The notes under the pieces were generated by a model, which was not told the origin of the DNA, searched no databases, and saw nothing but the letters and a program-made list of their open reading frames with translations. From Fibrobacteria bacterium (GTDB lineage: Bacteria > Fibrobacterota > Fibrobacteria > UBA11236): a DNA stretch of 64,000 nucleotides. This document shows, one piece after another, positions 6,546 to 53,713 of this stretch. Where the stretch lies: assembly GCA_041746255.1 (NCBI GenBank), contig JBGTHM010000100.1:1-64000 (forward strand), written 5' to 3'. Within the stretch, counting starts at the first letter, position 1, and every line of letters begins with the position of its first letter. The position numbers and the translations under genes were made by a program.

Positions 6546-6998
6546 TCAGTTTTCGTCGTAAACGCGTTCAACCTGTTCGCGATCCTTGGGTTCAACTATT
6601 TCGTTGGCGAAGGAGCGGTCAAGCGGCAGCGCATTGAAATCGGGGTTGGTATTGTCGAGAATGTAAACCGCCGCGGGATTATCGAGCCAGCCTACCACTT
6701 CCACATTGCTGAGGTCATGATGTCCGGCGCCGGATACCTTCAAGATTTGCAGCTTGTCATTGTCCACCCATCCTCGAATTCCGCCCCGGGTCCGGATCAT
6801 GGACCGGTTCTTGCCCTTTTTCATAAAGGTCACTTCCTGGTCCCCGCCGATTTCGGTATTTTTTTCGGCCGGATCCGACATCTCACTTTTATAAACATTC
6901 GCGCCACCGGCCTTGATTTTGGTGACTTCGGTGGTTTTGGCGAAAAGCAGCCCAACAAGCATGAGCAGCGAGAAAATGATGAAGGATGTCTTGCGCAT
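6546..6998 (-). CDS. Secreted protein, SH3b-like domain plus GltF/CglF-like C-terminus
   Basis: Signal peptide MRKTSFIIFSLLMLVGLLFA; IRTRGGIRGWV SH3b-like motif; C-terminal EVVGWLDNPAAVYILD...DRSFANEI. Confidence 0.7.
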   Translation of the reverse strand: MRKTSFIIFSLLMLVGLLFAKTTEVTKIKAGGANVYKSEMSDPAEKNTEIGGDQEVTFMKKGKNRSMIRTRGGIRGWVDNDKLQILKVSGAGHHDLSNVEVVGWLDNPAAVYILDNTNPDFNALPLDRSFANEIVEPKDREQVERVYDEN

Positions 6999-7130
6999 AA
7001 GTTCTTCCTTTAACCTGCCCGTAAAGAGCAATTGATCAGCAATATATAGTGGAATTGGGAAATACACAAGGGGCCCCCCTAAAAATCTCTAAATCCACCC
7101 CATTTCATGGAACCAGGCCCGATACCGCGA

Positions 7131-7160
7131 TTGAATCCAAAAAATTGGAAAGGCTATAAT
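7131..7160 (+). promoter_or_regulatory. Sigma70-type promoter of the motor-polysaccharide operon
   Basis: TTGAAT-N18-TATAAT about 90 nt upstream of ATG 7250. Confidence 0.6.
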
Positions 7161-7249
7161 AGCTCTGCGCCCGAAAATTCATTTTAGGGTTTTTTGAACT
7201 TTGAGTTCGAAGGTCTGGCTGTTTTTCAGCCAAGCGAAGGGATGGGAAG

Positions 7250-7900
7250 ATGTTCGATTCTTGGACCCACTTAGCCAAATATGTGGACGAAGGCGGTTGG
7301 GTCAATTATGTGATTCTAGCGGTTCTCGCCATGTCCATTTCGGTAATGATCGAGCGAATCTGGTACCTCTATTTTCGGTGCAGGCTCAACTCAAAGGGCC
7401 TACTGGACCAAGTAATGGCCTTATTGCGCAAGCAATCCTTTACCCAGGCACGCAAATTGTGCACAAATACCAAAACTCCCCTGGGAGCCATTTTGGAATC
7501 CGGACTGCTCAAATTAGAACAGGCGGGAACTCAAAGCGACGTCAAGGATTCCATGGACGAAGCCTCCCTTCGCGAGATACCCAAACTGCAAAAAAGAACG
7601 CACTATCTCAGTCTTTTCGCCAACATTTCCACCCTGTTTGGACTGCTGGGCACCATTTTTGGATTACAGGAAGCCTTTATGGCACTGGATGCGGCCGATC
7701 CTTCCCAGAAAAGCAAATTGCTGGCCAAGGGCATCGCCATGGCCATGAATACCACGGCCCTGGGTTTAATGGGCGCCATACCCGCCATGATCGCTTTTTC
7801 CTATTTGGGCGCCAAAGCCAACGCGCTGCTGGAACAAATCGACGAAGCCATGGCCAGGTTGTTGAATTTCGTCTCCAACCAATCCGGATCGCCGGGATAA
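7250..7900 (+). CDS. MotA/TolQ/ExbB proton channel (AglR-like)
   Basis: Three TM segments; STLFGLLGTIFGL and GIAMAMNTTALGL motifs. Confidence 0.93.
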   Translation: MFDSWTHLAKYVDEGGWVNYVILAVLAMSISVMIERIWYLYFRCRLNSKGLLDQVMALLRKQSFTQARKLCTNTKTPLGAILESGLLKLEQAGTQSDVKDSMDEASLREIPKLQKRTHYLSLFANISTLFGLLGTIFGLQEAFMALDAADPSQKSKLLAKGIAMAMNTTALGLMGAIPAMIAFSYLGAKANALLEQIDEAMARLLNFVSNQSGSPG

Positions 7901-7925
7901 TCTCCCTTGCCAAGCGAATAACAGC

Positions 7926-8411
7926 GTGCAAAAACCCTCCTTATCCAAGCAAAACAGCAAGGCCCTCTTAGAGCCTATTAATCTGGATTTGACCCCCATC
8001 ATGAATATGATGCTGATTCTCATTCCGTTGCTGGTAACCATGGCCGTTTTCACGCAAATATCCGTTATACAATTCAGCCTGCCTTCCGAGGAGGGGGAAT
8101 CGCTTCCGGGTGAGGAGATAACGCCCAGGCCACCCGGGGACGTGGACATTACCCTGGTTGTTACCGAATCCGGGTTCCAAATTATCGGCGAAGGCAAAAA
8201 AATGGACCCCATCCCTAAAAACCGGGGTGCATTCGATTTTCCCATCCTGAAAAGGTACCTGGAAAAACTGCGGCAGGAATACCCCCTTACCGAAACCATC
8301 GTATTACTGGTAGACCCAGCCGTAGGCTACGAGGACCTAATCGGTACCATGGACATTTGCCGGGAATCGCGCTACACGAATGTCGCGCTTTCGGGAGGCA
8401 TTGAGCCATGA
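7926..8411 (+). CDS. ExbD/TolR family protein (first copy, Asn at conserved Asp site)
   Basis: LDLTPIMNMMLILIPLL TM; C-terminal YEDLIGTMDICRE. Confidence 0.88.
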   Translation: MQKPSLSKQNSKALLEPINLDLTPIMNMMLILIPLLVTMAVFTQISVIQFSLPSEEGESLPGEEITPRPPGDVDITLVVTESGFQIIGEGKKMDPIPKNRGAFDFPILKRYLEKLRQEYPLTETIVLLVDPAVGYEDLIGTMDICRESRYTNVALSGGIEP

Positions 8412-8887
8412 GCCAGCCCCGGCGAAGGAAACCGCCGCAATCGATGAAGCCGCAGATGACCTCTTTGGTGGACATCCTGACCATCCTGCTGGTTTTTCTC
8501 ATCAAAAGCTTCTCCTCCGATGGTGAAATCATGGTCATGGACAAAAACCTCGATTTACCGGTGAGCTCGGCGGCTGGCACGCCCGTCCCCGCCCTGATTA
8601 TCGGCATTAGCCGCGACCACATCCTGGCGGGCGGCTTTCCCGTGGCCCGGGTCGACGAAGAATCCGCGCGAAAAGGTCCCCTGATTCCCACCCTTATGGA
8701 TTGGCTGGTGGAGAAAAAAGCGCAAACGCTGCGTATTTCTGAATTCGATGAAAGCGTGGAATTCGAAGGGCAGATTACCATTCAGGGCGATCGGAAAATC
8801 CCGTATTGGATCCTGCAAAAGGTTTTGCGTACCTGCGGAGAAGCGGGTTACAATAATTTTTCGCTGGCCGTGGTTAAAAAGGAATGA
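8408..8887 (+). CDS. ExbD/TolR family protein (second copy, AglS-like)
   Basis: MTSLVDILTILLVFLIKS TM; IQGDRKIPY...KVLRTCGEAGY; ATGA overlap with the previous gene. Confidence 0.9.
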   Translation: MSQPRRRKPPQSMKPQMTSLVDILTILLVFLIKSFSSDGEIMVMDKNLDLPVSSAAGTPVPALIIGISRDHILAGGFPVARVDEESARKGPLIPTLMDWLVEKKAQTLRISEFDESVEFEGQITIQGDRKIPYWILQKVLRTCGEAGYNNFSLAVVKKE

Positions 8888-9858
8888 TACCGGAGCAGCC
8901 ATTGCCGAAGCGGGAAAGCGGCTCCGAGAGCGGCTGGGATGTCGCATACCTGGTATCGTGGCTGATATGCATCTCGGTTTTCATCGCCTTCATAGTGTGG
9001 GTGAAATCGGTGGATTACAGCATGTTGTCGCAACAAGTCGATTTGCAAAAACTTTCTCCACGAGTTTTGAAAATAATCTTACCCCCGAAATCGAAGACCC
9101 CCGACGCGGCTGAGCGGAAGGCGAAACTCGCGGCCGAAGCGAAGGCGAAACAATCCGCTCCCGCCGACTTGGCCGTGCGGATACAGAAGGCGCGCGAGAG
9201 CGTTCAAGAAAACATGCAACAGGCCCAGGAACGGGTAACCAAAGCGGCGGTCCTGAGCATCCTTACCGGCAAAGGCCCGAGCAAAAAAGGAGGCGAAGCC
9301 GGTGGGAAATTGAAGAAGGCCGGCTTCGGTGATTGGGACGATTTGAACAAACGTTTGGAGACTCTCGAAGGGCTTACCCGTTACGATGCCAAGCAGGGGT
9401 CGCAAAACCGGGACGGCGTCCGGCCCAGTGCTACGGAGGGGAGCGCCGCCACCCTCACCGATTTGGTTCGGGGATTCGAGGACGCCAAGGTAGGAGCTTT
9501 GAAGAAAATCGGAGACCTCAAGGTCGAGAAACCGGAAATCCTCACCTCCGGTCATCAGGGAGGCAATCGCGATCCGGCGCAAATGTCCGCTTTCATCAAT
9601 CAAAGACAGGCCTCGATTTCGATGCTCTACGAGGAGAGGCTTAAAATCAATCCTTCCATGGAAGGAAAAGTAACCTTGTTAATCGTGATCGAAGCGGACG
9701 GAAGAGTCTCGACGGTTCGAGTCGTTCCGGGAGAAACGACCCTCAAAGATACCGCATTTCACGAGGCGCTCATGCGGAGAATCCGCAATTGGAGATTCCC
9801 AACCACGCAGGGCGGGGCCGTGGAAATAAAATCGCCATTCGTGTTCAGGCCGGTTTAG
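8884..9858 (+). CDS. TonB/TolA-like energy transducer with AgmX/PglI (GltG/GltJ-like) C-terminal domain
   Basis: N-terminal TM, Lys/Ala/Gly-rich linker, C-terminal YEERLKINPSMEGKVTL...IRNWRFP...PFVF. Confidence 0.85.
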   Translation: MIPEQPLPKRESGSESGWDVAYLVSWLICISVFIAFIVWVKSVDYSMLSQQVDLQKLSPRVLKIILPPKSKTPDAAERKAKLAAEAKAKQSAPADLAVRIQKARESVQENMQQAQERVTKAAVLSILTGKGPSKKGGEAGGKLKKAGFGDWDDLNKRLETLEGLTRYDAKQGSQNRDGVRPSATEGSAATLTDLVRGFEDAKVGALKKIGDLKVEKPEILTSGHQGGNRDPAQMSAFINQRQASISMLYEERLKINPSMEGKVTLLIVIEADGRVSTVRVVPGETTLKDTAFHEALMRRIRNWRFPTTQGGAVEIKSPFVFRPV

Positions 9859-9867
9859 GAGTTCATT

Positions 9868-10773
9868 ATGAAGACACTCAGTATGGGTTGGTTCCGATTT
9901 CTCGCGCTGCTGGCGGTCTGTTCTTTTCCGGCCTTCGGCGCCGTCATCAAGGCGGGCATGACCCTGAACATTATCGTGAAAAACGATCCGCAACTTTCGC
10001 AAATCGTCAAGGTACAGGAGAACGGGACCCTGGAATATCCCCTTTACCAGGATGTGTCGGTGATTGATAAGACCACCAGCGAGTTACAGGACATTCTTAC
10101 TTTCCGGTTGGCCAGGGTCATCGAATCCCCGCTGGTGCTTGTGAGTATAGTCACCGAAGTTCCCCTACAAATTTACGTACTGGGTCAAGTGCCCAAACCG
10201 GGAATGGTAAGCGTATCGCCGCGGGCGAGCTTACAGGAAGTGTTGCAGGCCGCGGGAGGCCCTTCGGAGCATGCCGATCTGGAAAAGGTGAAGGTTGTCC
10301 ATAGGAATCAGGGAGACGAAAGCGCCAGCTATTATAACCTGCAGAAATTCCTCACCGTTGGAGACCTGGCCTTGCTGCCTACTCTGCGGGACGGAGATCG
10401 AATCATTGTTTTGGCCTCGAAAAGTTCCAAATACGTCAAGGTGCTGGGAGCGGTTTCCAAGCCGGGCTTCTATACACTCAACGAAAGCGCCTCGGTTTTC
10501 GATATGTTGTATCTGGCCGGAGGGCCGAGCGCGGACGCCAACCTTACGAAAGTACGCGTTATGGGCCAACGCGGAGGCCAGTCAGCCGATTTTATGCTGG
10601 ACCTGCAGCGGTTTATCGACGAGGGGGGCACCGAAAAACTTCCCTTGCTGTCCCAAGGCGATGTTATAATCGTCTATAATAAGACACTTACCTGGTCGAA
10701 AAGTTTGACGGTGTTACGGGACATTGTCACCATCGTAACCGCGTGGTTCGTAATATCCCGATTGCTGGATTAA
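9868..10773 (+). CDS. wza: Polysaccharide export (OPX/Wza-like) protein with SLBB repeats
   Basis: Poly_export region (VQENGTLEYP), two VLGxVxKPG...AGG SLBB repeats, amphipathic C-terminal helix. Confidence 0.88.
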   Translation: MKTLSMGWFRFLALLAVCSFPAFGAVIKAGMTLNIIVKNDPQLSQIVKVQENGTLEYPLYQDVSVIDKTTSELQDILTFRLARVIESPLVLVSIVTEVPLQIYVLGQVPKPGMVSVSPRASLQEVLQAAGGPSEHADLEKVKVVHRNQGDESASYYNLQKFLTVGDLALLPTLRDGDRIIVLASKSSKYVKVLGAVSKPGFYTLNESASVFDMLYLAGGPSADANLTKVRVMGQRGGQSADFMLDLQRFIDEGGTEKLPLLSQGDVIIVYNKTLTWSKSLTVLRDIVTIVTAWFVISRLLD

Positions 10774-10775
10774 GT

Positions 10776-12911
10776 ATGAGCAGAGGATTCCGCAAAGAAT
10801 TAGGCTTGGCAGACTATTTCGAAGTTCTGGCCCGGAACAAGTGGATTATCCTTTTCACCATTTTCGCTTTTACGGCCCCGACCTGGTATTTCGTACAAAG
10901 TATTCCCGACCGATATATCGCCACCAGCCAATTGGTGATGGACGACAGGCAGGAAACCTTTCTCTCCCTGGGAAACATCGGAGGGAAAAAGAATCTCAGC
11001 TATTACCGCACCATTCTCCAAAGCCAAGCCTTCGCCCAAAAGGTCGTAGCACCATTGCAGGACCGGTTTAGGGATGCGGGCATAGGGAATCCCTCCGCTT
11101 TCGTCAGGGAGCGCCTGACGATTACCGAGGGCAGTTCGCCTTCCTTTCTTTCGGTGAAGGCCGATTCGCCGCAACCCAACCTTAGCCATGCTCTAGCCAT
11201 CACCGCAACCGACAGCCTGGTGGTTTTCTGCCGGCGGGTGGAAAATGACGAGGCCGCCAATACGGTGCTGGCCATACAGGAACAAATTGAAATCTGCATA
11301 CTCAAGCGCGATGAGATTGAAGAGCAACGGCGGCAATTGACCGACGTTTCCAAATTAGGCGTTAAAGGCGACATGGAAGGCCTCAAGGCCTTGGAGCATA
11401 GCTATCAACAGGAGTTGGTCAAATTCGAATTAGAGAAAGCCAGCCTGGAGGCGCAGAAGATTTTTTTCAATTCGCTGGACAAGACCATTAATAAGCCTTC
11501 CAACAGCGCCAACGAAGGCCGACTGGCGGAACTCCGGCAGAAGCTCCGCTCCTTGGAAACGGAGAAGGATAAAATGCTCCGACTGGGCGTGCCTGTCATT
11601 CCGGACAGCAAATTGAGCCGGGACATCCAGGCGGCCGAAGAGGAAATCGTCAGGCTGAGCAAAACCAATGTGGTCACCGACGTAAGCATGCTGAGACAAT
11701 GGCAATCCACACGCAGGGAAATCCAGTCCGGCGAAGGCGACTTGATGCTGAAACAAGCCCGCCTGACGGCATTTAAAAGCGCAATCGTGGGCTATCGCAA
11801 GAACCATCCCGATCTGGGAAAACACGAGTTGGAGGTCCAACAGTTGGATAACCTCCTGGACCGGTATACCCAAACCCATCGACGCCTGACCGAGCGCCTG
11901 GAAGACGCCGTTATCATCATGCAGTCGAAATCGGGAGGGATCAAAGTTGTGGACAAGGCCGTCGTCCCGACCACTCCCGTTTCCAAAAAGGATTACATCT
12001 ATTATTTGCTGGCTTTGGTTATCGGCACGGGTGTGGGGGTATCGTTGGGTTTGCTGCGCGAATTCATGGACGACAGCGTGAAAGGTCCCGAAGACGTGGA
12101 AAAAGAAATGGCGCTCTCCCTGTTAGGCACCATACCCCATATCATCCCCAAGAAAACCGATTTGGAAATCCGCCGCAGCATTCCCGGCGCGAAGCACCAG
12201 CGCTTGCGAAACCGCTATCCGGAACTCATCATGCGCGCTCAAGGCCAGGAAAGCATTATCGCGGAAGCCTATCGCTCCCTGCGTACCAACATCGTCTTCG
12301 CGAGTCCCGACAAACCCGTGCGCACCATGCTGATAACCAGCAGCGGTCCCAGCGAGGGCAAATCGCTCACCATGTGCAATACCGCCTTGTCGTTTTCCCA
12401 TCAAGGCGAGCCTACTCTCATCGTCGACACGGATCTCCGAAGACCCGTCTGCCACCACCTGTTCGGAATGGAGCGAGGACCCGGATTCGGGGAGTTTTTC
12501 GCGGGTACTTGCACGTTGGAAGAAATCGTACGCGAGGTTCCGGGAACCAATTTGAAAATCATCACCGCGGGAGCGCATACTCCAAGTCCCGCCGAACTGC
12601 TTTCGTCCCATAAAATGGATCTCATGATCGCCGAACTTAAAAAATCCTTCCAATATATTTTCTTCGATACGCCTCCCGTCATCGCGGTGACCGACGCCTG
12701 CATCCTGGCCACCAAAGTGGATGGCGTGATGCTGGTGACCCGGGCGGGAATAACCCGCATGGGCGCCGCGGAAAGGACGCTGCAATCGCTCCGCAACGTC
12801 AAGGCGCGCGTGTTGGGATGCATTCTCAATGACATCGACCTGAATAAAGGCCGCGGTTCTTACGGTTACTATAAGAACTACTATCACCACTACCTCGCCA
12901 AAAAGGACTGA
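10776..12911 (+). CDS. wzc: Polysaccharide co-polymerase / BY tyrosine kinase
   Basis: Two TMs flanking a coiled coil; EAYRSLRTN, Walker A SSGPSEGKS, DTDLRRP, FDTPP, Tyr cluster YGYYKNYYHHY. Confidence 0.95.
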   Translation: MSRGFRKELGLADYFEVLARNKWIILFTIFAFTAPTWYFVQSIPDRYIATSQLVMDDRQETFLSLGNIGGKKNLSYYRTILQSQAFAQKVVAPLQDRFRDAGIGNPSAFVRERLTITEGSSPSFLSVKADSPQPNLSHALAITATDSLVVFCRRVENDEAANTVLAIQEQIEICILKRDEIEEQRRQLTDVSKLGVKGDMEGLKALEHSYQQELVKFELEKASLEAQKIFFNSLDKTINKPSNSANEGRLAELRQKLRSLETEKDKMLRLGVPVIPDSKLSRDIQAAEEEIVRLSKTNVVTDVSMLRQWQSTRREIQSGEGDLMLKQARLTAFKSAIVGYRKNHPDLGKHELEVQQLDNLLDRYTQTHRRLTERLEDAVIIMQSKSGGIKVVDKAVVPTTPVSKKDYIYYLLALVIGTGVGVSLGLLREFMDDSVKGPEDVEKEMALSLLGTIPHIIPKKTDLEIRRSIPGAKHQRLRNRYPELIMRAQGQESIIAEAYRSLRTNIVFASPDKPVRTMLITSSGPSEGKSLTMCNTALSFSHQGEPTLIVDTDLRRPVCHHLFGMERGPGFGEFFAGTCTLEEIVREVPGTNLKIITAGAHTPSPAELLSSHKMDLMIAELKKSFQYIFFDTPPVIAVTDACILATKVDGVMLVTRAGITRMGAAERTLQSLRNVKARVLGCILNDIDLNKGRGSYGYYKNYYHHYLAKKD

Positions 12912-12938
12912 ACAGGGCCTGGGTCCCAGGCGAAACGC

Positions 12939-14543
12939 ATGGAAGCGATCCGGAGAATCATCGGAAACATAGGGCATGCCTTGGCCTCTCAGGCGATGAA
13001 CTTGAGCTTGGGTCTGGTGGCCTCCATTGTCCTGGCCCGTACCCTCGGCCCCAACGATCTGGGTATTTTCCACCAGGTGCAATGGTTTGCCGGGACGGTC
13101 TCCGTAATCATCTCGCTGGGATTCATCACCTCAGTCACCAAATTCACGGCGCAATACCGCGGCAAGGGAGATGCGGCCACGCTGACGGCGGTCATTCGCT
13201 TCATACTCTATTTTGAAGTCGCGGTGGCGGCGGCGACAACCATCGCCCTCCTGTTTTTCGCCACGGCCATCGCCACCCACTATTTCTCACCCGATCAAAC
13301 CTTCCTGTTCAAGCTTTCCTTTCTCGCGATTACTCCGGGCATCGCCACCGCCGTCTTCTCGGCTGCGCTGGAAGGCGCGCAGGTATTCCGCTATCAAAGT
13401 CTGCAGGCCTTCACCGTCACCCCGCTTTCACTTGGATTGAAAATCGCGTTGATGCTGGGGGGATACGGAATCGAATCCCTGCTTTGGAGCAATCTGCTTT
13501 TCTCTTTCGTGAACCTGATTTTCTATTTTTTCGCAGCCCGAAAAGAGGGTCTTTTGAAAGACTGGCTCGGCCGTGTAAAAGCCGATGGGGGGTGGCGAAG
13601 CGAACTCTTCCGTTTCAACCGTTCCGTAACCGGAATCCATTTCATCGATTTGTTGGTCTGGTCGCGTTCTGAAAATTATTTTCTGGGCCGTTATTGCCAG
13701 GCTCCCCAAATCGCCTATTATAATCTCGCCCAAAACCTGATCGCACGGTTCACGTCCTTTTTGCCGGGATTAGTTTGGAAGATTCTGCTTCCGCTGTCCT
13801 CGGAACAACACGGCCGCAACGAAAACGCCAAAATGTTCCGCACCTATACCGCCGCGTTGCGCTATACAGCCGCCTTCACCATGCCCGGAATCGTAATCTG
13901 CTTCGTTTGCGCTTACGAGTTGGTCGTCATTCTTTTCGGCATCGAATACGCTCCGGTTAAAACCTCTTTCCGGATTCTTTGCGTGGGAGCGCTGTTTTCT
14001 TCCCTGGCCCAACCCTCGTCCGCAGCCATCTACGCCACCAACAGACAGGCTTTCATTTTGCGATATGGTTCCTTTCTCGCGGTGTTGAACATCGCCCTGA
14101 ACATATGGCTTATCCCCAAACACGGCGCCACGGGCGCTTCGGTATGTTACGCCGTCGTAACCACCATGGGCGTGGTAGGCGGTTTCATCTACGCCCGGCT
14201 AAGTATGGCATTCGGAGTTCCCTGGTTCTCCTGGTTGAAAATCGGACTTAACGCCGTTACCATGGGTATTTGCCTTTGGCTGCTAATCAGCCTCGACTTG
14301 GAATTTTTCCGGCTTTTCGAACCCTGGCAAAATTGGCTTGAGCAAAATACCGGTTACCGATTCGACGTATTTCTAGGCAAGCGCGCCGTTCGCTTGGTCC
14401 TGGCCTGCTGCATATCGCTTGGGCTTTACGTCGGCCTATGCTTCATGATGTTCCATCCCCAAGCGGATGACGATAAAATATTGGATGCCCTGCAACTAGC
14501 CATTCCCTGGCTTCCCATTCGAAAATTTATCCGTAAGCCATAG
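12939..14543 (+). CDS. wzx: Oligosaccharide flippase
   Basis: Multi-TM; LARTLGPNDLG MOP-family start; position in polysaccharide cluster. Confidence 0.88.
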   Translation: MEAIRRIIGNIGHALASQAMNLSLGLVASIVLARTLGPNDLGIFHQVQWFAGTVSVIISLGFITSVTKFTAQYRGKGDAATLTAVIRFILYFEVAVAAATTIALLFFATAIATHYFSPDQTFLFKLSFLAITPGIATAVFSAALEGAQVFRYQSLQAFTVTPLSLGLKIALMLGGYGIESLLWSNLLFSFVNLIFYFFAARKEGLLKDWLGRVKADGGWRSELFRFNRSVTGIHFIDLLVWSRSENYFLGRYCQAPQIAYYNLAQNLIARFTSFLPGLVWKILLPLSSEQHGRNENAKMFRTYTAALRYTAAFTMPGIVICFVCAYELVVILFGIEYAPVKTSFRILCVGALFSSLAQPSSAAIYATNRQAFILRYGSFLAVLNIALNIWLIPKHGATGASVCYAVVTTMGVVGGFIYARLSMAFGVPWFSWLKIGLNAVTMGICLWLLISLDLEFFRLFEPWQNWLEQNTGYRFDVFLGKRAVRLVLACCISLGLYVGLCFMMFHPQADDDKILDALQLAIPWLPIRKFIRKP

Positions 14544-14550
14544 GAAAAGC

Positions 14551-15711: not shown

Positions 15712-16940
15712 AAATAGCCATCATCTCCCGGGAATATCCTCCGGAAACCCATATCGGAGGCATCGCGACCTATAGCCGGATTGCCGCGGAATTGCTGGCC
15801 CGGCATGGCCACGAAGTCCATGTGCTTTGCAATGGAAAAATAGGTTCCCGAAAAATCCAGGCAGGCGTGGAGGTGCATCGAATTCCCATGGGACCGCATG
15901 CCCTTCCCCAGGGAAGATTCTGGTACCGTTTCCGATCTTTATACCGTCGATACCTACCCGTGTATTTGGAGACGCGCACCTGGGCAACCACCCTGTTGGA
16001 GTATGTCACCACCCAATTCGATTTAAGCGGCTTCGACGCGTTGGAATACCCGGAGACGCATGCCGAGGGATTGCTGGTGGCGCAGCGCTTATCCGGCTTG
16101 CGCAAAATCTGCCGTATCCATTCTTCCTGGTTGGACGAATATCCAGCGAATTTTCTGGAAGCGCGTTTGTTACTGCGCTGGCAGAAATCCGGATGCGAAG
16201 CAGCCGATCGGGTAGTGAGCCCCAGTCGATATATGATTGGAAATTATGCGAAGAACAGACTGGGATTTTCAGGAACCGTGGAATATTCCCCCAATCCCTT
16301 GCAGTTTTGGAAGCAGCCCATCGACTGGAATTCCAAGGCGGTGAATCACCTCCTTTTCGTCGGCCGCGTAGAGCACCGCAAGGGTTTGCACATTCTCCTC
16401 AAAGCCTTGGAATCTGCGCCCGCACAAGCCGGCCTTGTTCTCCGAATAATCGGCGCGCCGGCCCCCGGAGATACCGAACCGGACCGGCGCTGCCTGGAAA
16501 GTTTCCGGCGAGCCGAATCCCAAGGGATTCCCGGTGTCAGAATGGAATACCTGGGAGCGATACCTCATGAAGATTTACCCCGCCATTACGATTGGGCGGG
16601 CATCGTGGTAATGCCGACGCTAATGGACAACTACCCCTACGTTGCCCTGGAAGCGCTTTCGCGCGGTTGCCATGTCCTGGGAAGCCGTGTAGGCGGCATG
16701 CCCGAAATAATTTCCGAATCGGGGGCAGGCGGGTTATTCGAACCGGAAAACAGCGCACAACTGGCTCAAAAAATAGGAGAATGTCAAGAAAGCGGAGAAA
16801 GGATTCTCTCGGAGGCCAAGGAGCATGCGGAGCGATTCCATGCGCGTTATTCCGAAGTTATCGCCTACCGCCGGCTCTTATCTCTATTCGGAGGGCAATC
16901 TGACCCGCACAACCTACCAGGTGGTGAAAAGAGGAATTGA
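15708..16940 (+). CDS. Glycosyltransferase family 4
   Basis: SREYPP...GGIATY, FVGRVEHRKG, DNYPYVALEA, SRVGGMPE. Confidence 0.92.
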   Translation: MKIAIISREYPPETHIGGIATYSRIAAELLARHGHEVHVLCNGKIGSRKIQAGVEVHRIPMGPHALPQGRFWYRFRSLYRRYLPVYLETRTWATTLLEYVTTQFDLSGFDALEYPETHAEGLLVAQRLSGLRKICRIHSSWLDEYPANFLEARLLLRWQKSGCEAADRVVSPSRYMIGNYAKNRLGFSGTVEYSPNPLQFWKQPIDWNSKAVNHLLFVGRVEHRKGLHILLKALESAPAQAGLVLRIIGAPAPGDTEPDRRCLESFRRAESQGIPGVRMEYLGAIPHEDLPRHYDWAGIVVMPTLMDNYPYVALEALSRGCHVLGSRVGGMPEIISESGAGGLFEPENSAQLAQKIGECQESGERILSEAKEHAERFHARYSEVIAYRRLLSLFGGQSDPHNLPGGEKRN

Positions 16941-17511
16941 CATTGTAGGCGCCCTCTTCGGGCTGGTCCTCCTATTTTTACTGTTTCCCTTCGTCGCGCT
17001 GGCCATCAAATTGAACTCGCGTGGCCCTGTCTTATTCGTGCAGACACGGGTGGGAAGATATGGTCAGCGCTTCAAGTTCATCAAGTTTCGCACCATGCAT
17101 GTTCGCGCCCACTTGCGGCAATGGGATCTGGATAACCTCAACGAGGCCGGATCGGTGACTTTCAAGATGACGTCCGACCCCCGTATTACCGCCGTGGGTA
17201 GATACTTGCGCCGAACCAGTATCGATGAAATGCCTCAGTTTTGGAATGTGCTCATGGGAGAAATGTCCCTGGTAGGCCCCCGTCCTCCGCTGCTGCGCGA
17301 AGTCCCTCAATACGACGACTTGCAAAAAGTACGCATGAGCGTTCCCCAAGGCATGACGGGGTTATGGCAAGTGCGTGGACGTTCGCTCCTGCATTTCAGC
17401 GATATGATCGATCTCGACGTCTACTATGCGCTGAACCCCTCCCTGAGCCTGGACTTCCGTATCATGATGGCCACGCTACCCGCTGTCCTGTGCGGGCGGG
17501 GCGCCTACTAG
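16825..17511 (+). CDS. Priming undecaprenyl-phosphate sugar-1-phosphate transferase (small form)
   Basis: KRGIDI, KFRTM, DPRITAVGRYLRRTSIDEMPQFWNVLMGEMSLVGPRP, GMTGLWQV; start uncertain. Confidence 0.93.
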   Translation: MRSDSMRVIPKLSPTAGSYLYSEGNLTRTTYQVVKRGIDIVGALFGLVLLFLLFPFVALAIKLNSRGPVLFVQTRVGRYGQRFKFIKFRTMHVRAHLRQWDLDNLNEAGSVTFKMTSDPRITAVGRYLRRTSIDEMPQFWNVLMGEMSLVGPRPPLLREVPQYDDLQKVRMSVPQGMTGLWQVRGRSLLHFSDMIDLDVYYALNPSLSLDFRIMMATLPAVLCGRGAY

Positions 17512-17517
17512 AATTTT

Positions 17518-18462
17518 ATGCCGAATATCAGCCTGGCTTTGGTCACTTACAACCAAATCGATTACCTGAGGCAATTCGTGTCAAATTATTTAAGGCATTG
17601 TCCCCTGGGTAAGGTACCGTTGCTCGTGGTCAATGACGGATCAACCGACGGAACCCGCGACTATCTGGATTCCTTACAAAATCCCCATATGGTAATCTTG
17701 CATTGCCCGCATGTATCGATAGCCCATGCCCGGAATCATGCCCTGAAAAACGCATCTACTGCCTGGCTGGCGTTCTCCGACACCGACTGTCGCTTGGATT
17801 CGGACTATTTCGAAAAACTCGTGGATATTCCGCATCTGTTTCCGGATTGCGCGGCGGTCGAAGGCGCAGTCCACCCTCCGATTGGATTGCGTCCTCCCTT
17901 CTGCCACTTCCTGACCAACTTACAGGGAGGAATGTACGTCACCGCCAATATGGTTTTCAGCGTGGAGGCAGCCCGACGCATCGGAGGTTTCGATGAGGCC
18001 TTTGCGAATTATCGGGAGGACGTGGATTTGGGCCTGCGCCTTTTGGAAAATGGCGGCAGCATACCCTTCTGTTCCGAGTTACGGATTATCCACCCGTATA
18101 TCCCGCGCGGATTTTTCCGTTCGCTGTTGGAGGCCTTCACTCATATTCCCCGCTTGGTCGAATCCGAACTACGGCTTTATCGGAAACACCCGACAACCTA
18201 TTCCCGGGTGCGCCACCATCCGGATTTCCGCAGCACCCTGCACACTTGGTGCACGCGCCAGACCTGGATGGCCTTTCGCGACTGCCGACGCTTTTTTCGA
18301 GATCGGACGGCGCTTCCATCGGAAGCCCCACGAGACCTATCGCTACCGCGAATGGTAATGAAATGCATGCAAGCCCTCACGGTCGCCCTCGCGGAACAAG
18401 TCGGTTTTACCTTACAGTTATTGGGCAGATGGAAAAGCGTGGTCGTAGGCGGTCGAACATGA
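17518..18462 (+). CDS. Glycosyltransferase family 2
   Basis: VVNDGSTDGT, ARN, FSDTD (DxD), GGFDE, EDVDL. Confidence 0.92.
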   Translation: MPNISLALVTYNQIDYLRQFVSNYLRHCPLGKVPLLVVNDGSTDGTRDYLDSLQNPHMVILHCPHVSIAHARNHALKNASTAWLAFSDTDCRLDSDYFEKLVDIPHLFPDCAAVEGAVHPPIGLRPPFCHFLTNLQGGMYVTANMVFSVEAARRIGGFDEAFANYREDVDLGLRLLENGGSIPFCSELRIIHPYIPRGFFRSLLEAFTHIPRLVESELRLYRKHPTTYSRVRHHPDFRSTLHTWCTRQTWMAFRDCRRFFRDRTALPSEAPRDLSLPRMVMKCMQALTVALAEQVGFTLQLLGRWKSVVVGGRT

Positions 18463-19574
18463 GGATATTAGTGGTATGGGTAGGAGCCATCGTACCGGCA
18501 TACCGTACCTTCTTCGATGAACTTGCCGGCCAAGCGGAAGTGCACATCCTGACGCCGAAAAAATGGACGCATGGATCCGTCCCATACCATTGGAAGAAAT
18601 GCCTTCCCAGCGGTTCCGAGTCTTACCGTCTGAACTTCACCCGCTTCTGGCCCGGTGATTCAAAATATTTGCTTCCCGGATTGCCCGCGCACCTCCTGCG
18701 CATCCGCCCAGACAGGGTTTATTTTATGGACGAACTCGATCGCCTGAACCTGACCTTGCATATCATCATCACTAAAATCTTTGCGCCCACGGCTCGGGTA
18801 GTCACTTATGCCTTGCAGAATCTCGAAAAACCCGCTTACTACGGTTGGAGTCATCGCATCGCCCTCTCCACCAACACCCATATGGTAAATGGGGTAATCG
18901 CCGCTTCCAGCGAGGCGGGTCGAATTGTCAGGAAACACGGATTCACGGGCCCCTTAACCCGGATTCCCCTGTCGGCTTCGCCGGATTTTTTTTCACCTGT
19001 TTCCCGGGATGAAAAAATCCGTCTGCAAGCGGAGTTGGGCTTGACTGCGGAAGCCGGAAAAATAATCGTCTATGCCGGAAGCTTAGTACAGGCCAAGGGG
19101 GTTTCCTTGTTGGCGGAAATATTGCCGCGGTTTCCCCATTTCGTTCTGGTCACGGCGGGTGACGGGCCGCTGCGCACAAAGTTGCAGGATATGCTCGGGT
19201 CCCGTTTCCTTTGGCGGGGCGCATTAAGAGGTCGGGATTTGGTACGGTTCTACCAATGCGGGGATTACGTCCTATTGCCGTCGAGGGACACTCCGGCTTG
19301 GAAGGAGCAGGTGGGACGCTCCCTCATCGAGGGGATCCTGTGCGGATGCCTTGGTTTGGGAAGCGATTCCGGCAGCATCCCCGAAGTGGTCGGCTTGCCT
19401 GAACTGCTTTTCAAGCAGAACGATCCGGAATCGTTGGCCTCTTTGCTTGCTTCTCTCCCCCTTCGTGACGAAGAAGGTTGGCGTGCGCGTCAGCTTCGGC
19501 ATGTCTCGGATATTTACGCGCATCCGGTATGCGCGCGTCAAACGGCGGAATTTATGGCGGGGTTGGCCACATGA
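18459..19574 (+). CDS. Glycosyltransferase family 4
   Basis: YAGSLVQAKG, AGDGPL, WKEQVGRSLIEG, SDSGSIPE; ATGA overlap. Confidence 0.9.
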   Translation: MRILVVWVGAIVPAYRTFFDELAGQAEVHILTPKKWTHGSVPYHWKKCLPSGSESYRLNFTRFWPGDSKYLLPGLPAHLLRIRPDRVYFMDELDRLNLTLHIIITKIFAPTARVVTYALQNLEKPAYYGWSHRIALSTNTHMVNGVIAASSEAGRIVRKHGFTGPLTRIPLSASPDFFSPVSRDEKIRLQAELGLTAEAGKIIVYAGSLVQAKGVSLLAEILPRFPHFVLVTAGDGPLRTKLQDMLGSRFLWRGALRGRDLVRFYQCGDYVLLPSRDTPAWKEQVGRSLIEGILCGCLGLGSDSGSIPEVVGLPELLFKQNDPESLASLLASLPLRDEEGWRARQLRHVSDIYAHPVCARQTAEFMAGLAT

Positions 19575-20659
19575 AACCCTTGCGCATCCTGCACCTGCAC
19601 CGGGACCTCCCGCCGGATAGCTACACCGGCGTTGCCGTGCAAGTCCATCGCCTGGCGAATGCGCTTACCGGCATTGGACATGACGTTACGGTAGCCACAC
19701 TCTCCCCGCGCCCGCCGGATGCCGATTATTCGGTACTCGCATTGCCGCAAATTCCTGCCGGTTTCACCCGCTGTAAACGGGTTTTGCTGCCGATTGCTTT
19801 TCGCGGATTGGATTCGGAGGGCTTCGATGCCGTGCATGTACACGGCGACGGGGCATTTTTGCGTATCGATTCCCGTTTCGTCCGTACCTTTTACGGTACC
19901 GCTTCCCAGGAGGCGCGCCATGCCCGCGGAATCAAGGGCAGGATGGCCCAGTCCCTTTCGTACTGGATGGAGAGCCGCGAAGCGCGCGCATATCCGGTTT
20001 GCACGGCCATTTCCGGCCATGTCCGGCTCCACCTAAGCCGTATTTCCCATGTGATACCCTGCATGCTTGCGTCAGAACCGCCGAATCGAATTCCCCGAAA
20101 ACATACCGACCCTACCCTCATTTATCTGGGTTCGCGATTTACCCGCAAGCGCGGCGAATCGGCTTTACGGATTTACTCCCGGTTGCGAAAGGTTATCCCC
20201 CGGCTACGCATGCATTACATCGGTCCGGAACCGGATGTAATGGCCCTGCGAAAAGAAACGGATGGCATGTCGCCTTGGGAAAACCTGTATTGCCACACCC
20301 GGTTGAGCCGGAATTCGCTGGAGGAACTCTATGCCGAGAGTTGGATTTACCTATCCACTGCCGGCTATGAAGGTTTCGGAGTCTCCCTTATCGAAGCCAT
20401 GGCGGCCGGATGCATACCCGTATCCGTCCCACACCCAGGAGCTTTGGAAATAATCACCCCGGGGGAAACGGGCTATTTGGGTAGCGAGGAAGATATCCCC
20501 GGATTGGTAAAGCGGTTGATAGCCGAGCCCACTCTTGTCAAAAACGTAGCGGAAAAAGCCTTAATCCGTTCCCGCGATTTCGCGCCCGGAAAAATTGCGC
20601 GCGAATACGAAAGCCTTTACCATGCATCGGTTTCACGCCGAAACCGTGGAGAAGACTGA
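19571..20659 (+). CDS. Glycosyltransferase family 4
   Basis: YEGFGVSLIEAMAAG (Ex7E); ATGA overlap. Confidence 0.9.
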   Translation: MKPLRILHLHRDLPPDSYTGVAVQVHRLANALTGIGHDVTVATLSPRPPDADYSVLALPQIPAGFTRCKRVLLPIAFRGLDSEGFDAVHVHGDGAFLRIDSRFVRTFYGTASQEARHARGIKGRMAQSLSYWMESREARAYPVCTAISGHVRLHLSRISHVIPCMLASEPPNRIPRKHTDPTLIYLGSRFTRKRGESALRIYSRLRKVIPRLRMHYIGPEPDVMALRKETDGMSPWENLYCHTRLSRNSLEELYAESWIYLSTAGYEGFGVSLIEAMAAGCIPVSVPHPGALEIITPGETGYLGSEEDIPGLVKRLIAEPTLVKNVAEKALIRSRDFAPGKIAREYESLYHASVSRRNRGED

Positions 20660-22152
20660 TGCAAGTGAAAGTCGATTCTCCCTGGATTTATCCCCTAATC
20701 GCCGCGCTGGGAATCCTTTTCGCCTATAAAATGGTGAATATTCCCTCCCGCACCGAAATTGCGATTTTCGCCATTGGGATTTTTCTGATTCCCGCCTTGA
20801 AGTATCCCAAGTTCAGCACCTACTACCTGCTCACCTTCCCGCTTTTCGTCCCCTTCTTCCGGCGCCTTTATTACCTCGTAGGCGAAAGGGTGCAAACCGA
20901 TCCAATCATGCTCATTTCGGACGGCGTGATGATCGCTTTTCTGGCCAGCCTGATCCTCCTGTGGATTTACAACAAGGAAAGGTGCCGGGACATCCTTTCC
21001 GCCCTGATCGTAGCCTTCACTCTATGGCTTTTCGCGAAAGTCTTTTTGCAAAACCTGATTCCCATTGTCCAAGCCCTTTACGGTTTCAAATTCAACGGAT
21101 TATACGTGCCTTTCTTTTTCGCGGGCAGTTATTTTCTCTATAGCCTCGCCGGGCTTCAGCGAATCATCACTGTCGTCACGATAACCTTCATGGCGACGGC
21201 CTGCTATACCATCTGGCAAATCGTAATCGGCTTTCCCGCCTTCGATCAGGCTTGGATGGACTCGGTAACCTTCACGACACTCTATATCGAAGGCATCCCC
21301 CGGCCTTTCGGAACCTACGTCTCCCCCGCGGCCCTTTCCGATGCCATGTGCATCCTTTTGATCTTGGGCGCATACTGGCTGGCTCGCGGGGGAATGGTAC
21401 AGAAATCTTTCGGCCTTATAGTCATGGCTGCCGGTACCTATCCCCTGCTCATCGCCACGGTGCGCACGAATTGGATAGCTGCTGTCATGGGCTTATATTT
21501 CTTTTTCATTTTCCTCCGCATCATGGGGCCCTGGAAAAAGGGAATTCACCTGGTTCTCCTGGTTTTAGTGGCCGTAGCCCTCTCAGCCGGAAGCAAAACC
21601 GAGGATGAAACCCAGAATCGCCAATTGAGCAGTCATATGCAAAATGACGAACGCGGAATCCACGACATCATGGTCAAGGAACGGGTGCAGGCCGTTTCCA
21701 ATCCCATGCAAGAATACAGCCTTCTCAAGCGCATGGATACTTGGAAAGGCATCTGGAATTACTCCTTCACCTATCCGCTGGGGCGAGGCCAGAATACCAC
21801 GGGGTATGCCCACAGTTATTATTTCCAAATTTTGGGAGAAACGGGGTATCCCGGATTACTGTTTTTCCTTGCCATACTTTGTCTCTTCTTCCACCGTGGA
21901 TTTTACGTGGTTCGCATGGCGACAGACCCCGCCGCCATCCTTTTGGCCCGATTATTCCTTACCATGGTCTTCATGTTTTCCATTCTTAACCTGACGGGTA
22001 CCCACCTCCACTCCAATCCGGGAGATATCTATTTCTGGTTCAGCGGAGGAGCGCTGGCTTTCCTGTACCGACATGTCCGCGACGAAGCTGCGACAGTCAA
22101 GGACGAACCCGCTACTACCCATTCCTTGCAAGTGGAGAGCAGCGGTGCTTGA
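20659..22152 (+). CDS. Wzy polymerase / O-antigen ligase family membrane protein
   Basis: Many TMs; RPFGTY, ATVRTNW, YPLGRG, AHSYYFQILGETGYPGL (Wzy_C-like). Confidence 0.82.
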   Translation: MQVKVDSPWIYPLIAALGILFAYKMVNIPSRTEIAIFAIGIFLIPALKYPKFSTYYLLTFPLFVPFFRRLYYLVGERVQTDPIMLISDGVMIAFLASLILLWIYNKERCRDILSALIVAFTLWLFAKVFLQNLIPIVQALYGFKFNGLYVPFFFAGSYFLYSLAGLQRIITVVTITFMATACYTIWQIVIGFPAFDQAWMDSVTFTTLYIEGIPRPFGTYVSPAALSDAMCILLILGAYWLARGGMVQKSFGLIVMAAGTYPLLIATVRTNWIAAVMGLYFFFIFLRIMGPWKKGIHLVLLVLVAVALSAGSKTEDETQNRQLSSHMQNDERGIHDIMVKERVQAVSNPMQEYSLLKRMDTWKGIWNYSFTYPLGRGQNTTGYAHSYYFQILGETGYPGLLFFLAILCLFFHRGFYVVRMATDPAAILLARLFLTMVFMFSILNLTGTHLHSNPGDIYFWFSGGALAFLYRHVRDEAATVKDEPATTHSLQVESSGA

Positions 22153-23263
22153 AGGCAAAACCATCGTGATTATCGGCCATCCGCTGGCAGCGGAGGAAAA
22201 CCGTCTCCCCTTCAGGTATTTCCAGGGCGCACAGATCCATTTGATAGTTCCGGAAAGATGGAAGGCGCGTTCTGCCGGACGGGAATTCCGCTTCGATGCC
22301 GGTTCCGGTGGTGGAGAACCGTCCCATCCCTACCAGTCCCATTCCCTCCCCGTTCTTTTCTCAGGAAGTAATACTTTTTTCAGTTGGCGCGGATTGTGGC
22401 CGTTACTTGATCGGCTACGGCCCGATTTAATCTATGGATGGGAAGAAGCTTGGTGCCTCGCATCCTGGCAGGTTCTGCGGTTTTGCCGGACGCACTCCAT
22501 CCCCTTACTTTTTTACGCGGCGGAGAACCGGAAGAAAAGACTACCCTGGCCCATAAGCACCCTCTGCCGGAAAGTGCTCGCGGGAACTTGCGCCGCCTTG
22601 GCTGTCAGCGAAGAGGCCTCATTGCGGTTGCGTGAGCTGGGTTTCACGCGACGAATCTTTACCATCCCCCTACCCATACGCGCATATCCTTCCATCCTTG
22701 CGAGCCGAGACAATCGTCTCTTGTTGTATATCGGAAGGCTTATCCCCTTGAAGCGGGTGGACCTGCTGGTGAAAACGCTCCCGCATCTTAAGCAGTGGCG
22801 CCTGCGCATTATCGGTGACGGTCCGGAAAAGAAGTACCTCCATGACCTTTCGCTGCAATTGGGAGTTGTTGAGAGAGTGGAGTTTCTCGGACATGTACCC
22901 AACCGGCAGTTGGCGGCCGTTAGTGAGGGAGCCACGTTCGCCTGTATTCCCACGGGCGAAAACCCCTGGCAGGCGGAACAATTCGGCAAATCCGCATTGG
23001 AAGCCGTTGCATTCGGATTGCCCGTGCTGGTCAGCGCCGGAGGACACTTTGTAAAAATTGCCAACGAATTCGAAACTCTTTACGCCCAGGCGTGGCGAAA
23101 TGAGGAGGAACTCGCCCGCAGTATCGAATATTCATGGGATAATTATCCCTCCCAGGCGCAACTGGCCCTATCTCGCGAACGTGTGATTTCGCGTTATGGC
23201 TCAGAGGCGGTGGGACGCCTCATGGCTGATGCGTTCGCCTCCATATTGACCGGGGAAAAGTGA
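22145..23263 (+). CDS. Glycosyltransferase family 4
   Basis: YIGRLIPLKR, IGDGPE, EQFGKSALEA; GTG start overlapping the upstream stop. Confidence 0.9.
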   Translation: MLEGKTIVIIGHPLAAEENRLPFRYFQGAQIHLIVPERWKARSAGREFRFDAGSGGGEPSHPYQSHSLPVLFSGSNTFFSWRGLWPLLDRLRPDLIYGWEEAWCLASWQVLRFCRTHSIPLLFYAAENRKKRLPWPISTLCRKVLAGTCAALAVSEEASLRLRELGFTRRIFTIPLPIRAYPSILASRDNRLLLYIGRLIPLKRVDLLVKTLPHLKQWRLRIIGDGPEKKYLHDLSLQLGVVERVEFLGHVPNRQLAAVSEGATFACIPTGENPWQAEQFGKSALEAVAFGLPVLVSAGGHFVKIANEFETLYAQAWRNEEELARSIEYSWDNYPSQAQLALSRERVISRYGSEAVGRLMADAFASILTGEK

Positions 23264-23264
23264 G

Positions 23265-24446
23265 ATGGCCGGAAGCAATAGTCTCATGCGCCTGATGGAA
23301 AGCTGGGTAGTACGGACTTACCTGTTTTTTCGACGCCTTCCGCGCGCCTTCGGATCCACAACTCTGCCGGTACAACCCAAACGCGTTCTCATCTGTAAAT
23401 CATGCTGCCTGGGAGACGCCTTGCTTTCGCTCTATGCCATTCGCGACTACCGCAAAAAAAATCCCGACGTGGTTCTGGACGTCCTGGGTTCCGCACGCGT
23501 TGAATCCATCTATAGGAACAGTCCGGATATCGACCAGGTATTTTCCTTGCCGGTCACGGGGCGAAACCTATTGCAGGAATTGCTCCATCCACGTTTCTGG
23601 CTGTCCGCTTTCTCAACCCTGCGAAGGCTAAGAGCCCGGCGCTACGATTGTCTTTTCGATTTGGAACTCTATCGGGGATATGGCGCCATACTACCCGTCC
23701 TGTTGAACATCCCCTATTCCCGTGGATTCAGGGTGGAAGGCACCTATTCCAAAGGGCATAATGAATTGGTGGATAGACCTAAGGACGAGCCGGAGTGGAG
23801 ATGCTTTTACCCATTATTCGAAGTGCCCTTTCCTGAGAGTGATCCGGAACCGTTGTTTACGCCCAAGGCCCGGGGCAAGTCAGACATTCTCCCGCTCACA
23901 ACCGGCAAGCGCCGCATCGGATTAGTCTATGGCTCGTCTTTCAATTGGCCCCAGAAAAAATGGCCGATTTCCCATTTTGTTTCCCTGATCCGCCTTTTAG
24001 ATGGGGTTGATTTCGAATTCGTCTTGCTCGGGAGTGATTGTGAAAAAGACGAGGCCGCCTATCTTTGCCGCGAGAGCGGGTTTCCACTTCACAATCTATC
24101 CGGGAAATTGGATTTTGAAGGTCTCCTGGATGCCGTGGCCGAATGCGATTTGGTAGTCGGGAACGATACCGGTACCATGCATGTGGCTGGAGCCCTCGGT
24201 ATTCCCGCCCTGACCCTATTCGGCCCGACCAATCCTCTGAAATGGCGGGGACTTTCTGCGCGCAGCCTATACCGGGGAGGCTTGCCCTGCCGCCCCTGTT
24301 ATTACTTGAGCGCCATGCCCGCCTGCCCCCATCGCAATTGCCTACAAACCCTGGAACCGGCGCGGGTGGCAACCGAAATCAAGGATTTTTGCAATCAGGA
24401 ACCCATATCGTTAGCCGACTGGACCCAAAACCTGGAATTGGGATGA
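23265..24446 (+). CDS. Glycosyltransferase family 9 (heptosyltransferase-like)
   Basis: LGDALLS, KKWP, GNDTGTMHVAGALG, LFGPT, CRPC. Confidence 0.92.
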   Translation: MAGSNSLMRLMESWVVRTYLFFRRLPRAFGSTTLPVQPKRVLICKSCCLGDALLSLYAIRDYRKKNPDVVLDVLGSARVESIYRNSPDIDQVFSLPVTGRNLLQELLHPRFWLSAFSTLRRLRARRYDCLFDLELYRGYGAILPVLLNIPYSRGFRVEGTYSKGHNELVDRPKDEPEWRCFYPLFEVPFPESDPEPLFTPKARGKSDILPLTTGKRRIGLVYGSSFNWPQKKWPISHFVSLIRLLDGVDFEFVLLGSDCEKDEAAYLCRESGFPLHNLSGKLDFEGLLDAVAECDLVVGNDTGTMHVAGALGIPALTLFGPTNPLKWRGLSARSLYRGGLPCRPCYYLSAMPACPHRNCLQTLEPARVATEIKDFCNQEPISLADWTQNLELG

Positions 24447-24580
24447 TTCGGGAAGGATCCCTCACCGGCCTCGCATCCGGGCTGTATTTATACATTATTT
24501 TTTTGCGGGTTTCGCTGTATCCTCTAAGATGAGTCAGGCAGCGCCGCCTCAGGTCGATTCCACAACTTCCAGGAAACAAG

Positions 24581-50385: not shown

Positions 50386-50401
50386 GCCGTGCATCCGATG
50401 A

Positions 50402-51616: not shown

Positions 51617-51651
51617 GTTTCCCGTGTAAATCGTATACAGGCTTATTCAGT

Positions 51652-52791: not shown

Positions 52792-52957
52792 AATGTGCAA
52801 GGTTCTTCTAACGTATCTAAAATAAACAAATCCTTCTAGAATTGGGCCGATTTCCTGACGCGCCGATTGATACTCACCACTCCCTGGTTTACGCAAGGCC
52901 GTTTCCAAAAAGGACTGCTTGGATTCGGATGGTTTTTTTATAGATTAGCCTCGGCTA

Positions 52958-53032
52958 GGCGACATACCCAAGTGGTAAGGGGGAGCTCTGCAAAAGCTTT
53001 ATTCAGCGGTTCGAATCCGCTTGTCGCCTCCA
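52958..53032 (+). tRNA. tRNA-Cys (GCA)
   Basis: Cloverleaf: GGCGACA/TGTCGCC acceptor stem, anticodon loop CTGCAAA, TTCGAAT T-loop, U discriminator, encoded CCA. Confidence 0.96.
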
Positions 53033-53063
53033 CCTCCCCATTTCAACTCGAATCGGATTAGCG

Positions 53064-53603: not shown

Positions 53604-53713
53604 GCCTACCTCCAGAACAATCGGGTTAAATCAGTGACCCCTACAATATACATCCGGATGAATTTCCGCATGATAAGGAATGCATTTTTCGTAAAAGCGG
53701 TTAAAAGGACTCT

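Follow-up and report, generated by a model that had tools for sequence, protein, structure and literature searches.

A putative Agl-Glt/Nfs-class motor encoded within a Wzx/Wzy polysaccharide operon and conserved across Fibrobacterota

The 64,000-nucleotide stretch of DNA analysed here (positions 1 to 64,000 of contig JBGTHM010000100.1, assembly GCA_041746255.1, from an uncultured Fibrobacteria bacterium; hereafter the window) carries a block of 16 genes, all on the + strand at 7250-24446, in which genes for a putative proton-driven motor lie immediately 5' of wza and the remainder of a polysaccharide pathway. In pathways of this kind Wzx flips, Wzy polymerises, and the chain leaves through Wzc and Wza with no TonB-type motor involved. 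Stators of the ExbB5-ExbD2 kind convert proton flow into a pull on a TonB-like protein. We read the block, with a probability of roughly 0.6, as a Wzx/Wzy pathway joined to the inner-membrane half of a trans-envelope machine of the Agl-Glt/Nfs class, which would handle the polymer after export and, by analogy with Agl-Nfs, position it on the cell surface. The system is a deeply conserved and apparently unpublished variant of that class.

The gene coordinates bear out the original prediction that the 16 co-oriented genes overlap or are separated by 27 nucleotides or less (gaps in block order are 25, -4, -4, 9, 2, 27, 7, -4, overlap, 6, -4, -4, -1, overlap and 1 nucleotides). Also as described there, wza has its ribosome-binding site (AGGAG, 9857-9861) in overlap with the TAG stop codon of the preceding TonB-like gene, and a pattern scan found no terminator-like site at that junction, although neither the terminator scan (32 sites versus 26.2 +/- 6.0 in shuffles) nor the promoter scan (13 sites versus 13.2 +/- 3.8) rises above chance. 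The single upstream sigma-70-like promoter that had been proposed thus stands as a candidate only: an intergenic site at 7131-7160 (+ strand) is present, matches the consensus at 10 of 12 positions and is among the two best, but the case for it is weak, and the number of such sites equals that in shuffled sequence. A terminator-like hairpin 3' of the block (24466-24484, + strand) is a pattern match from the same chance-level scan. The next gene, mltG, begins 134 nucleotides after the block.

The motor appears to belong with the AglR/core-complex type and not with ExbBD or TolQR, a call made against unnamed Myxococcota homologues and not against Myxococcus xanthus AglR itself. The ExbB/TolQ-family wheel subunit (7250-7900; PF01618, E 3e-26) shares 38-42% identity over ~200 residues with its best Myxococcota homologues (101 of 121 sampled genomes matched), compared with an E value of 1e-12 to TolQ, and it scores below both equivalog cut-offs (78 of 221 bits for TolQ, 51 of 206 for ExbB). 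In a stator tree, the 27 wza-linked rows form one clade (100/100) inside the group that holds the myxobacterial motors, separate from the generic paralogues of the same genome, with long branches flagged. These results support the Agl-like identity first proposed for the motor. No TonB-dependent receptor or TolB/Pal genes were found in the 16-gene block.

As in the Agl-Glt/Nfs class, there are two distinct ExbD/TolR-like subunits, both matching PF02472. The first (exbD1, 7926-8411) has Asn27 at the position of the proton-binding Asp, and this Asn is invariant in 63/63 wza-linked copies; the second (exbD2, 8408-8887) has the conserved Asp22, kept in 63/64 copies with one gap. The channel threonines of ExbB are nearly as constant (T135 in 62/63 and T169 in 63/63 wza-linked copies). 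First subunits from 27 other loci comprise 9 with Asn, 2 with Ser and 16 with Asp; Asn goes mostly with core-type operons and Asp mostly with stand-alone AglRQS-type ones, with exceptions. In M. xanthus both AglQ and AglS carry Asp (PMC9389320, partial text), and the Asn/Asp pair here thus departs from the pattern of Asp in both subunits that marks the AglRQS gliding motor.

The fourth gene (8884-9858) encodes a candidate force transducer with one transmembrane helix starting at residue 16, a long linker and an AgmX/PglI TonB-type C-terminal domain (NF033768, 80.8 bits; cut-off 40). Judged from its sequence, the protein is GltG-like but not a GltG equivalog: it matches the NF033760 GltG model over positions 343-647 only (61.5 bits; cut-off 650) and lacks the N-terminal FHA domain. 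No GltJ above cut-off is present in the genome (GltI, GltK, CglB and MglA were not searched for). The single GltG protein as a query recovered no related loci, and complex prediction of its C-terminal domain with a GltF-like peptide (see below) scored 0.01, which gives no answer.

Behind the motor come wza, wzc, wzx, five GT4, one GT2 and one GT9 glycosyltransferase genes, an initiating transferase and a Wzy_C protein, so that the outer-membrane polysaccharide export protein (OPX), the co-polymerase with its kinase motifs, the flippase and the initiating enzyme of a Wzx/Wzy pathway are present. Wza (9868-10773; PF02563 plus SLBB, Wza structures at E 1e-14) has a hydrophobic C-terminal segment and a signal peptide without a lipobox, a motif that gives 2 chance-like matches among 38 scored Wza sequences. 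Wzc (10776-12911) has its fused tyrosine kinase with Walker A, A' and B motifs and a six-tyrosine tail intact. The flippase (12939-14543; PF13440, E 5.5e-26) is followed by GT4 genes at 14551-15711 and 15708-16940 (both PF00534), the initiating phosphoglycosyl transferase (16825-17511, start uncertain within 16825-16924; PF02397, E 1e-59), the GT2 gene (17518-18462; PF00535), and GT4 genes at 18459-19574 (PF13692) and 19571-20659 (PF00534). The protein at 20659-22152, with ~11 hydrophobic segments, is a Wzy-like polymerase or O-antigen-ligase-like protein (PF04932, E 2.6e-7), a family that also includes ligases and for which the score of 31.0 bits lies just under the cut-off of 31.7. A last GT4 gene (22145-23263, start 22073 or 22145; PF00534) and the GT9 gene (23265-24446; PF01075, E 1e-27) close the block.

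Outside the window's family, the outer half of a Glt/Nfs-like machine is encoded alongside. In most other families the region 5' of the motor holds merR, genes for two paralogous secreted proteins, a tetratricopeptide repeat (TPR) protein of ~1150 residues, a TPR lipoprotein of ~1000 residues and a GltF-like peptide of ~97 residues. The order merR-barrel-barrel-TPR-TPR is present in 7/10 upstream regions, the other 3 being without the block, and most other families continue as GltF-like-motor-STAS-gltG-wza-wzc. In 33 genomes a barrel gene lies no more than 14 kilobases from gltG, and 31 of these also have wza adjacent. In 31 genomes the barrel pair, the two TPR genes and the GltF-like gene precede the motor, which would complete a Glt/Nfs-like machine. 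In the window's family this ancestral block is split, and the motor remains with wza and not with the barrel/TPR half. The window genome has its outer-half genes elsewhere (contig C82 from 14427 to the contig end, and contig C113 at 115-2898), and across its family motor, wza and the unlinked TPR lipoprotein share one set of 14/24 genomes.

One secreted protein of this outer half was modelled as a 12-stranded barrel with a helical tail (predicted local distance difference test score 65), with FapF (Z 19.7), COG4313 (19.3) and KdgM (18.5) as structural neighbours; no Pfam family was found for the barrels or for the GltF-like peptide. CHISP_0916 of Chitinispirillum alkaliphilum is a named homologue of the barrel. 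None of 26 GltF-like peptides matches CglF, although the gene position fits GltF; the GltF-like profile weakly matches Myxococcota genes that themselves match CglF, at E 3e-6 and 9e-3. The two TPR proteins, found both in the relatives' operon and on C82 and C113 of the window genome, fit the TPR scaffold class without a one-to-one assignment to GltC, GltD and GltE. The last 200 residues of the TPR lipoprotein match a Streptomyces rhamnosidase (3W5M, E 1.5e-23), a lectin and GH2 sugar-binding domains; presumably the first match falls on the CBM67 module of 3W5M. That rhamnosidase carries a rhamnose-binding CBM67 (PMC4690510, partial text). Where GltG is missing (G027, G030 and G031; 3/3 complete genes), the lipoprotein is cut to ~355 residues while the barrels and the first TPR protein remain.

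The association of motor and wza is kept across the phylum. We surveyed 296 Fibrobacterota genomes, with G021 dropped from the counts, and set the GltG orthologue cut at E < 1e-75, in the gap between 5e-80 and 2e-58. Orthologues of wza were found in 74, of GltG in 69 and of the barrel in 74 of the 295, barrel and wza occurring together in 71. All 69 GltG-carrying genomes have a wza orthologue, and the two genes are adjacent in 66 (65 on one contig and 1 across a contig break), as the synteny check attached to the original prediction called for. Among close orthologues of the TonB-like gene, 13/13 loci keep motor-wza-wzc-wzx (14 were found, G021 being left out). In two small relatives the divergent gene that precedes the block in the window joins straight to mltG, and therefore exactly these 16 genes are absent there as one block. 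The largest family, with 151 genomes, has no orthologue of wza, gltG or the barrel. General synteny can be set aside as the cause of the linkage, since the flanking genes differ outside the window's family while the gltG-wza junction stays, and wzc is followed by different genes among 51 loci outside the order. Retention of the junction in 66/69 genomes, against this variability behind wzc, puts the coupling far above chance. Five genomes have wza only, among them G119 and G026, two assemblies of 77% completeness in which contigs end at the locus; G026 is no counter-example, as an exbB orthologue is present at its contig end. The pairing suggests that motors of this kind may organise the secreted polysaccharide at the cell surface.

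A related arrangement occurs in a second phylum. Among the Myxococcota loci first read, 3/16 have TPR-TPR-TPR-gltF-exbB-exbD-exbD-gltG running into a barrel gene and a short OPX gene. In the sample of 121 Myxococcota genomes, a co-oriented AglR-type gene lies upstream of a WzaB-like OPX gene in 30 of 74 OPX-bearing genomes, 29 of them at 5.0-6.2 kilobases; the cassette was seen in 8/8 positive loci read, with wzc next in 5. In M. xanthus itself the G4 cluster (MXAN_1919-1923; PMC3169522, partial text) is three locus tags from wzpB-wzaB (MXAN_1916/1915; PMC9603273, partial text), a pair called orphan-like (PMC7310880, partial text). The premise that motor and exopolysaccharide loci are separate in myxobacteria is thus not general. 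Approximately unbiased tests rejected a clade made up exclusively of wza-linked motors from Fibrobacterota and OPX-linked motors from Myxococcota (p 0.005 and 0.018, on 36 of 52 concatenated rows, the second grouping having been named after the tree was seen); either the link therefore predates both phyla and was lost in places, or it evolved twice.

A precedent comes from M. xanthus, where Agl and Nfs together move Exo polymer that has already been exported, and where export continues if the motor is absent (PMC3858216, partial text; likewise PMC12288465, partial text). A predicted model of the gliding machine has GltF bridging GltG and the TPR scaffold beneath the barrels (PMC11761067, partial text). 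Gene content, tight coupling, phylum-wide conservation and the matching outer half are observed in the genomes, and from them we infer the following interactions and function. The stator, with one Asp and one Asn subunit, would pull on GltG; GltG would engage the TPR/GltF scaffold beneath the barrel pair; and the complex could capture the chain and drag, wind or anchor it so that a compact layer forms on the surface, much as Agl-Nfs compacts the spore coat of Myxococcus. We favour positioning because the anatomy appears to match Agl-Nfs part for part, with motor and polymer pathway in a single operon.

Several observations weigh against this assignment. Genomes G116, G295 and G044 have gltG followed by unrelated genes, with the motor apart from wza (it stays there with the TPR half), and G027, G029 and G030 keep wza-wzc-wzx without a GltG of this type. 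In G027 and G030 a stator of the wza-linked clade persists elsewhere in the genome, which corrects a reading of simple motor loss in their family; in G027 it precedes a classical TonB and a plug-domain receptor, an arrangement seen at L362:5131-10232 with a TonB_C domain in the receptor ahead of the plug. The stator is therefore not bound to glycan work, and at L362 the motor has apparently been re-used for import. The barrels resemble FapF and KdgM and are at most candidate counterparts of GltA/B. The sugar-binding-type domain is absent from the lipoprotein of the window genome, G001 and G003 with its flanks kept, and elsewhere an Asp at the position aligned to what we take to be the calcium motif is present in 8/40 copies of the domain. 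Finally, the GltG profile derives from 41 copies that are themselves wza-linked, and the genomes are kin, so that the counts are not independent and overstate the number of events.

In a rival reading, GltG would act on Wza or Wzc themselves, opening the pore or drawing out the chain, and the motor would be a component of secretion. The translational coupling at the gltG-wza junction and the retention of the motor by wza on the split of the block in the window's family would fit such energised export, and a Wza without a clear lipobox might need help. It nevertheless seems quite unlikely, because the three genomes with wza-wzc-wzx but no such GltG retain the exporter, in the three with separated loci the motor sits with the TPR half, Wzc comes with an intact kinase of its own, and Myxococcus agl mutants still export (PMC3858216, partial text). 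Alternatively, the machine and the pathway may share regulation only, the machine doing some other envelope job (Tol-like tethering, or import through the barrels) that is needed alongside the glycan, as might be the case in biofilms or in resting cells. The MerR gene that heads the block and the STAS gene between the exbD genes in most relatives would suit this, as would the separation of motor and wza in 3/69 genomes, the same-clade stator next to a TonB-receptor pair in G027, and a barrel fold like that of the small-solute porins KdgM and NanC. We consider it unlikely, since the gltG-wza junction varies less than the one behind wzc, most genomes have the sugar-binding-type domain on the machine's TPR lipoprotein, and the pairing recurs outside Fibrobacterota, in a phylum whose OPX is of another class.

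The motor could also pull on the cell's own slime and so move the cell, by gliding or active adhesion. An AglR-type stator together with a GltG-like protein would fit this, and slime helps Glt adhesion in Myxococcus (PMC7310880, partial text). This seems very unlikely here, however: the gliding model makes use of a cytoplasmic FHA domain (PMC11761067, partial text) that this GltG lacks, no GltJ in the genome passes its cut-off, the stator pairs Asn with Asp where AglQ and AglS both have Asp (PMC9389320, partial text), and the core genes alone have been judged insufficient, a G4 mutant gliding normally (PMC3169522). Thus, of the dedicated machine driven by the proton-motive force that was originally proposed to export, spread or pull on a surface glycan in slime, adhesion or gliding, positioning is the part we prefer; energised export is weakened by the exporters that lack GltG, and gliding by the missing FHA domain.

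Placed beside known systems, the putative positioning machine is closest to AglRQS-NfsA-H/Exo of M. xanthus (PMC3858216), with which it shares an ExbB-type wheel, two different ExbD-type subunits, a TonB-like transducer, a TPR scaffold, a GltF-like peptide, paired outer-membrane barrels and a Wzx/Wzy polymer as the likely cargo. It differs in having its own motor inside the polysaccharide operon, the Asn/Asp pair, a GltG without FHA, a full-length Wza with a C-terminal helix in place of a short OPX plus porin, FapF-like barrels with helical tails and, in most relatives, a sugar-binding-type domain on the TPR lipoprotein; it is not known to involve sporulation. The Agl-Glt core complex of Luciano et al. 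(2011, PMC3169522), exemplified by Fibrobacter succinogenes Fisuc_1892-1897, has the same single-cluster order of TPR-TPR-small gene-aglR-two exbD-gltG, but the block described here is tied to wza-wzc-wzx-wzy; the word "polysaccharide" is absent from the main text of that paper, and the Fisuc genes are probably a second paralogue, which in the window genome lies beside mreBCD. G4 likewise places a Glt-like module beside a polysaccharide exit, and the corresponding loci of other Myxococcota include stator genes, often with wzc next; the G4-side exporter, however, is a class-3 short OPX plus porin, and the tree tests do not support a common origin of the link. With the Escherichia coli group 1 capsule the block shares Wza, the tyrosine kinase Wzc, Wzx, a Wzy-like protein and an initiating transferase, but its Wza lacks a lipobox and no Wzb phosphatase gene is present. 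We know of no motor genes in the E. coli pathway. We found no published description of a motor-wza operon in the literature searched; Agrebi et al. (2015, Nat Rev Microbiol), who reportedly proposed that these machines arose from a capsule-assembly system, may mention the linkage.

The divergent gene upstream of the block (6546-6998, - strand) encodes a secreted protein with an SH3 domain and a faint GltF-like tail; the window protein itself has no family match, and its orthologue matches SH3_3 (E 1.6e-4). The tail had been offered as a link to GltF, and a match does exist (hhalign probability 8%, E 0.004, 47 columns), but the GltF-like gene of the system sits on another contig with the TPR and barrel genes. 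Homologues are present in 273/296 Fibrobacterota genomes, including 148/151 of a family without the motor-wza system, a distribution on which a role as dedicated GltF was rejected; the gene is thus probably a neighbour and not a dedicated part of the machine. In G027, G029 and G030 it adjoins wza directly. Its C-terminal tail is almost invariant, and it is likely a Fibrobacterota signature protein, perhaps a partner of the mreB-linked motor.

That second core-type motor (C115:969-15746 of the same genome) comprises an OmpA/beta-helix protein, two TPR proteins, exbB, two exbD, a gltG-like gene and a 432-residue secreted protein, followed by mreBCD; its first ExbD also has Asn, and similar clusters occur at L048-L050. 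A third motor type (L044:9177-12760 and L363:7664-11187) has two exbB genes, the second of ~430 codons and probably an ExbD fusion, before gltG-like and secA-like genes. The STAS (anti-sigma antagonist) gene between the exbD genes is seen at L163:4994-5368 and in most of L159-L209 and is absent in the window's family. In Myxococcota, L316:5431-9263, L317 and L319 have two divergent exbB-exbD-exbD sets back to back. The KSB1-type genomes of L325, L326 and L327 have TPR-gltF-exbB-exbD-exbD-gltG without an adjoining wza, two of their long TPR proteins likewise ending in the sugar-binding-type domain. Elsewhere in the window, 47694-59439 holds TamB, Omp85, PEGA, TPR and TolB-like propeller genes before an ABC peptide transporter, an ordinary-looking envelope cluster, and 59908-61536 a partner-switching module of two anti-sigma kinases and STAS proteins.

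Many bacteria that do not glide have the core of the Myxococcus gliding machine (PMC3169522), the function of which has been in question since 2011. A phylum-wide operon that joins the whole machine to Wza-Wzc, with a parallel in a second phylum, provides a substrate and brings that question within reach of a test. A broader proposal, which we offer tentatively and with more doubt than confidence, is that the ancestral job of the Agl-Glt core was to handle secreted polysaccharide: a one-aspartate (Asn/Asp) stator would drive a lectin-tipped trans-envelope arm that winds Wza-exported glycan around the cell in Fibrobacterota, the position of G4 beside wzpB-wzaB would be explained as well, and the gliding and spore-coat machines would be derived. 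The invariant Asn/Asp pair also lends itself to testing whether two proton sites are required in 5:2 rotary motors. If the positioning machine proves real, active, proton-driven shaping of capsules would be added to a field that treats Wza/Wzc export as motor-free.

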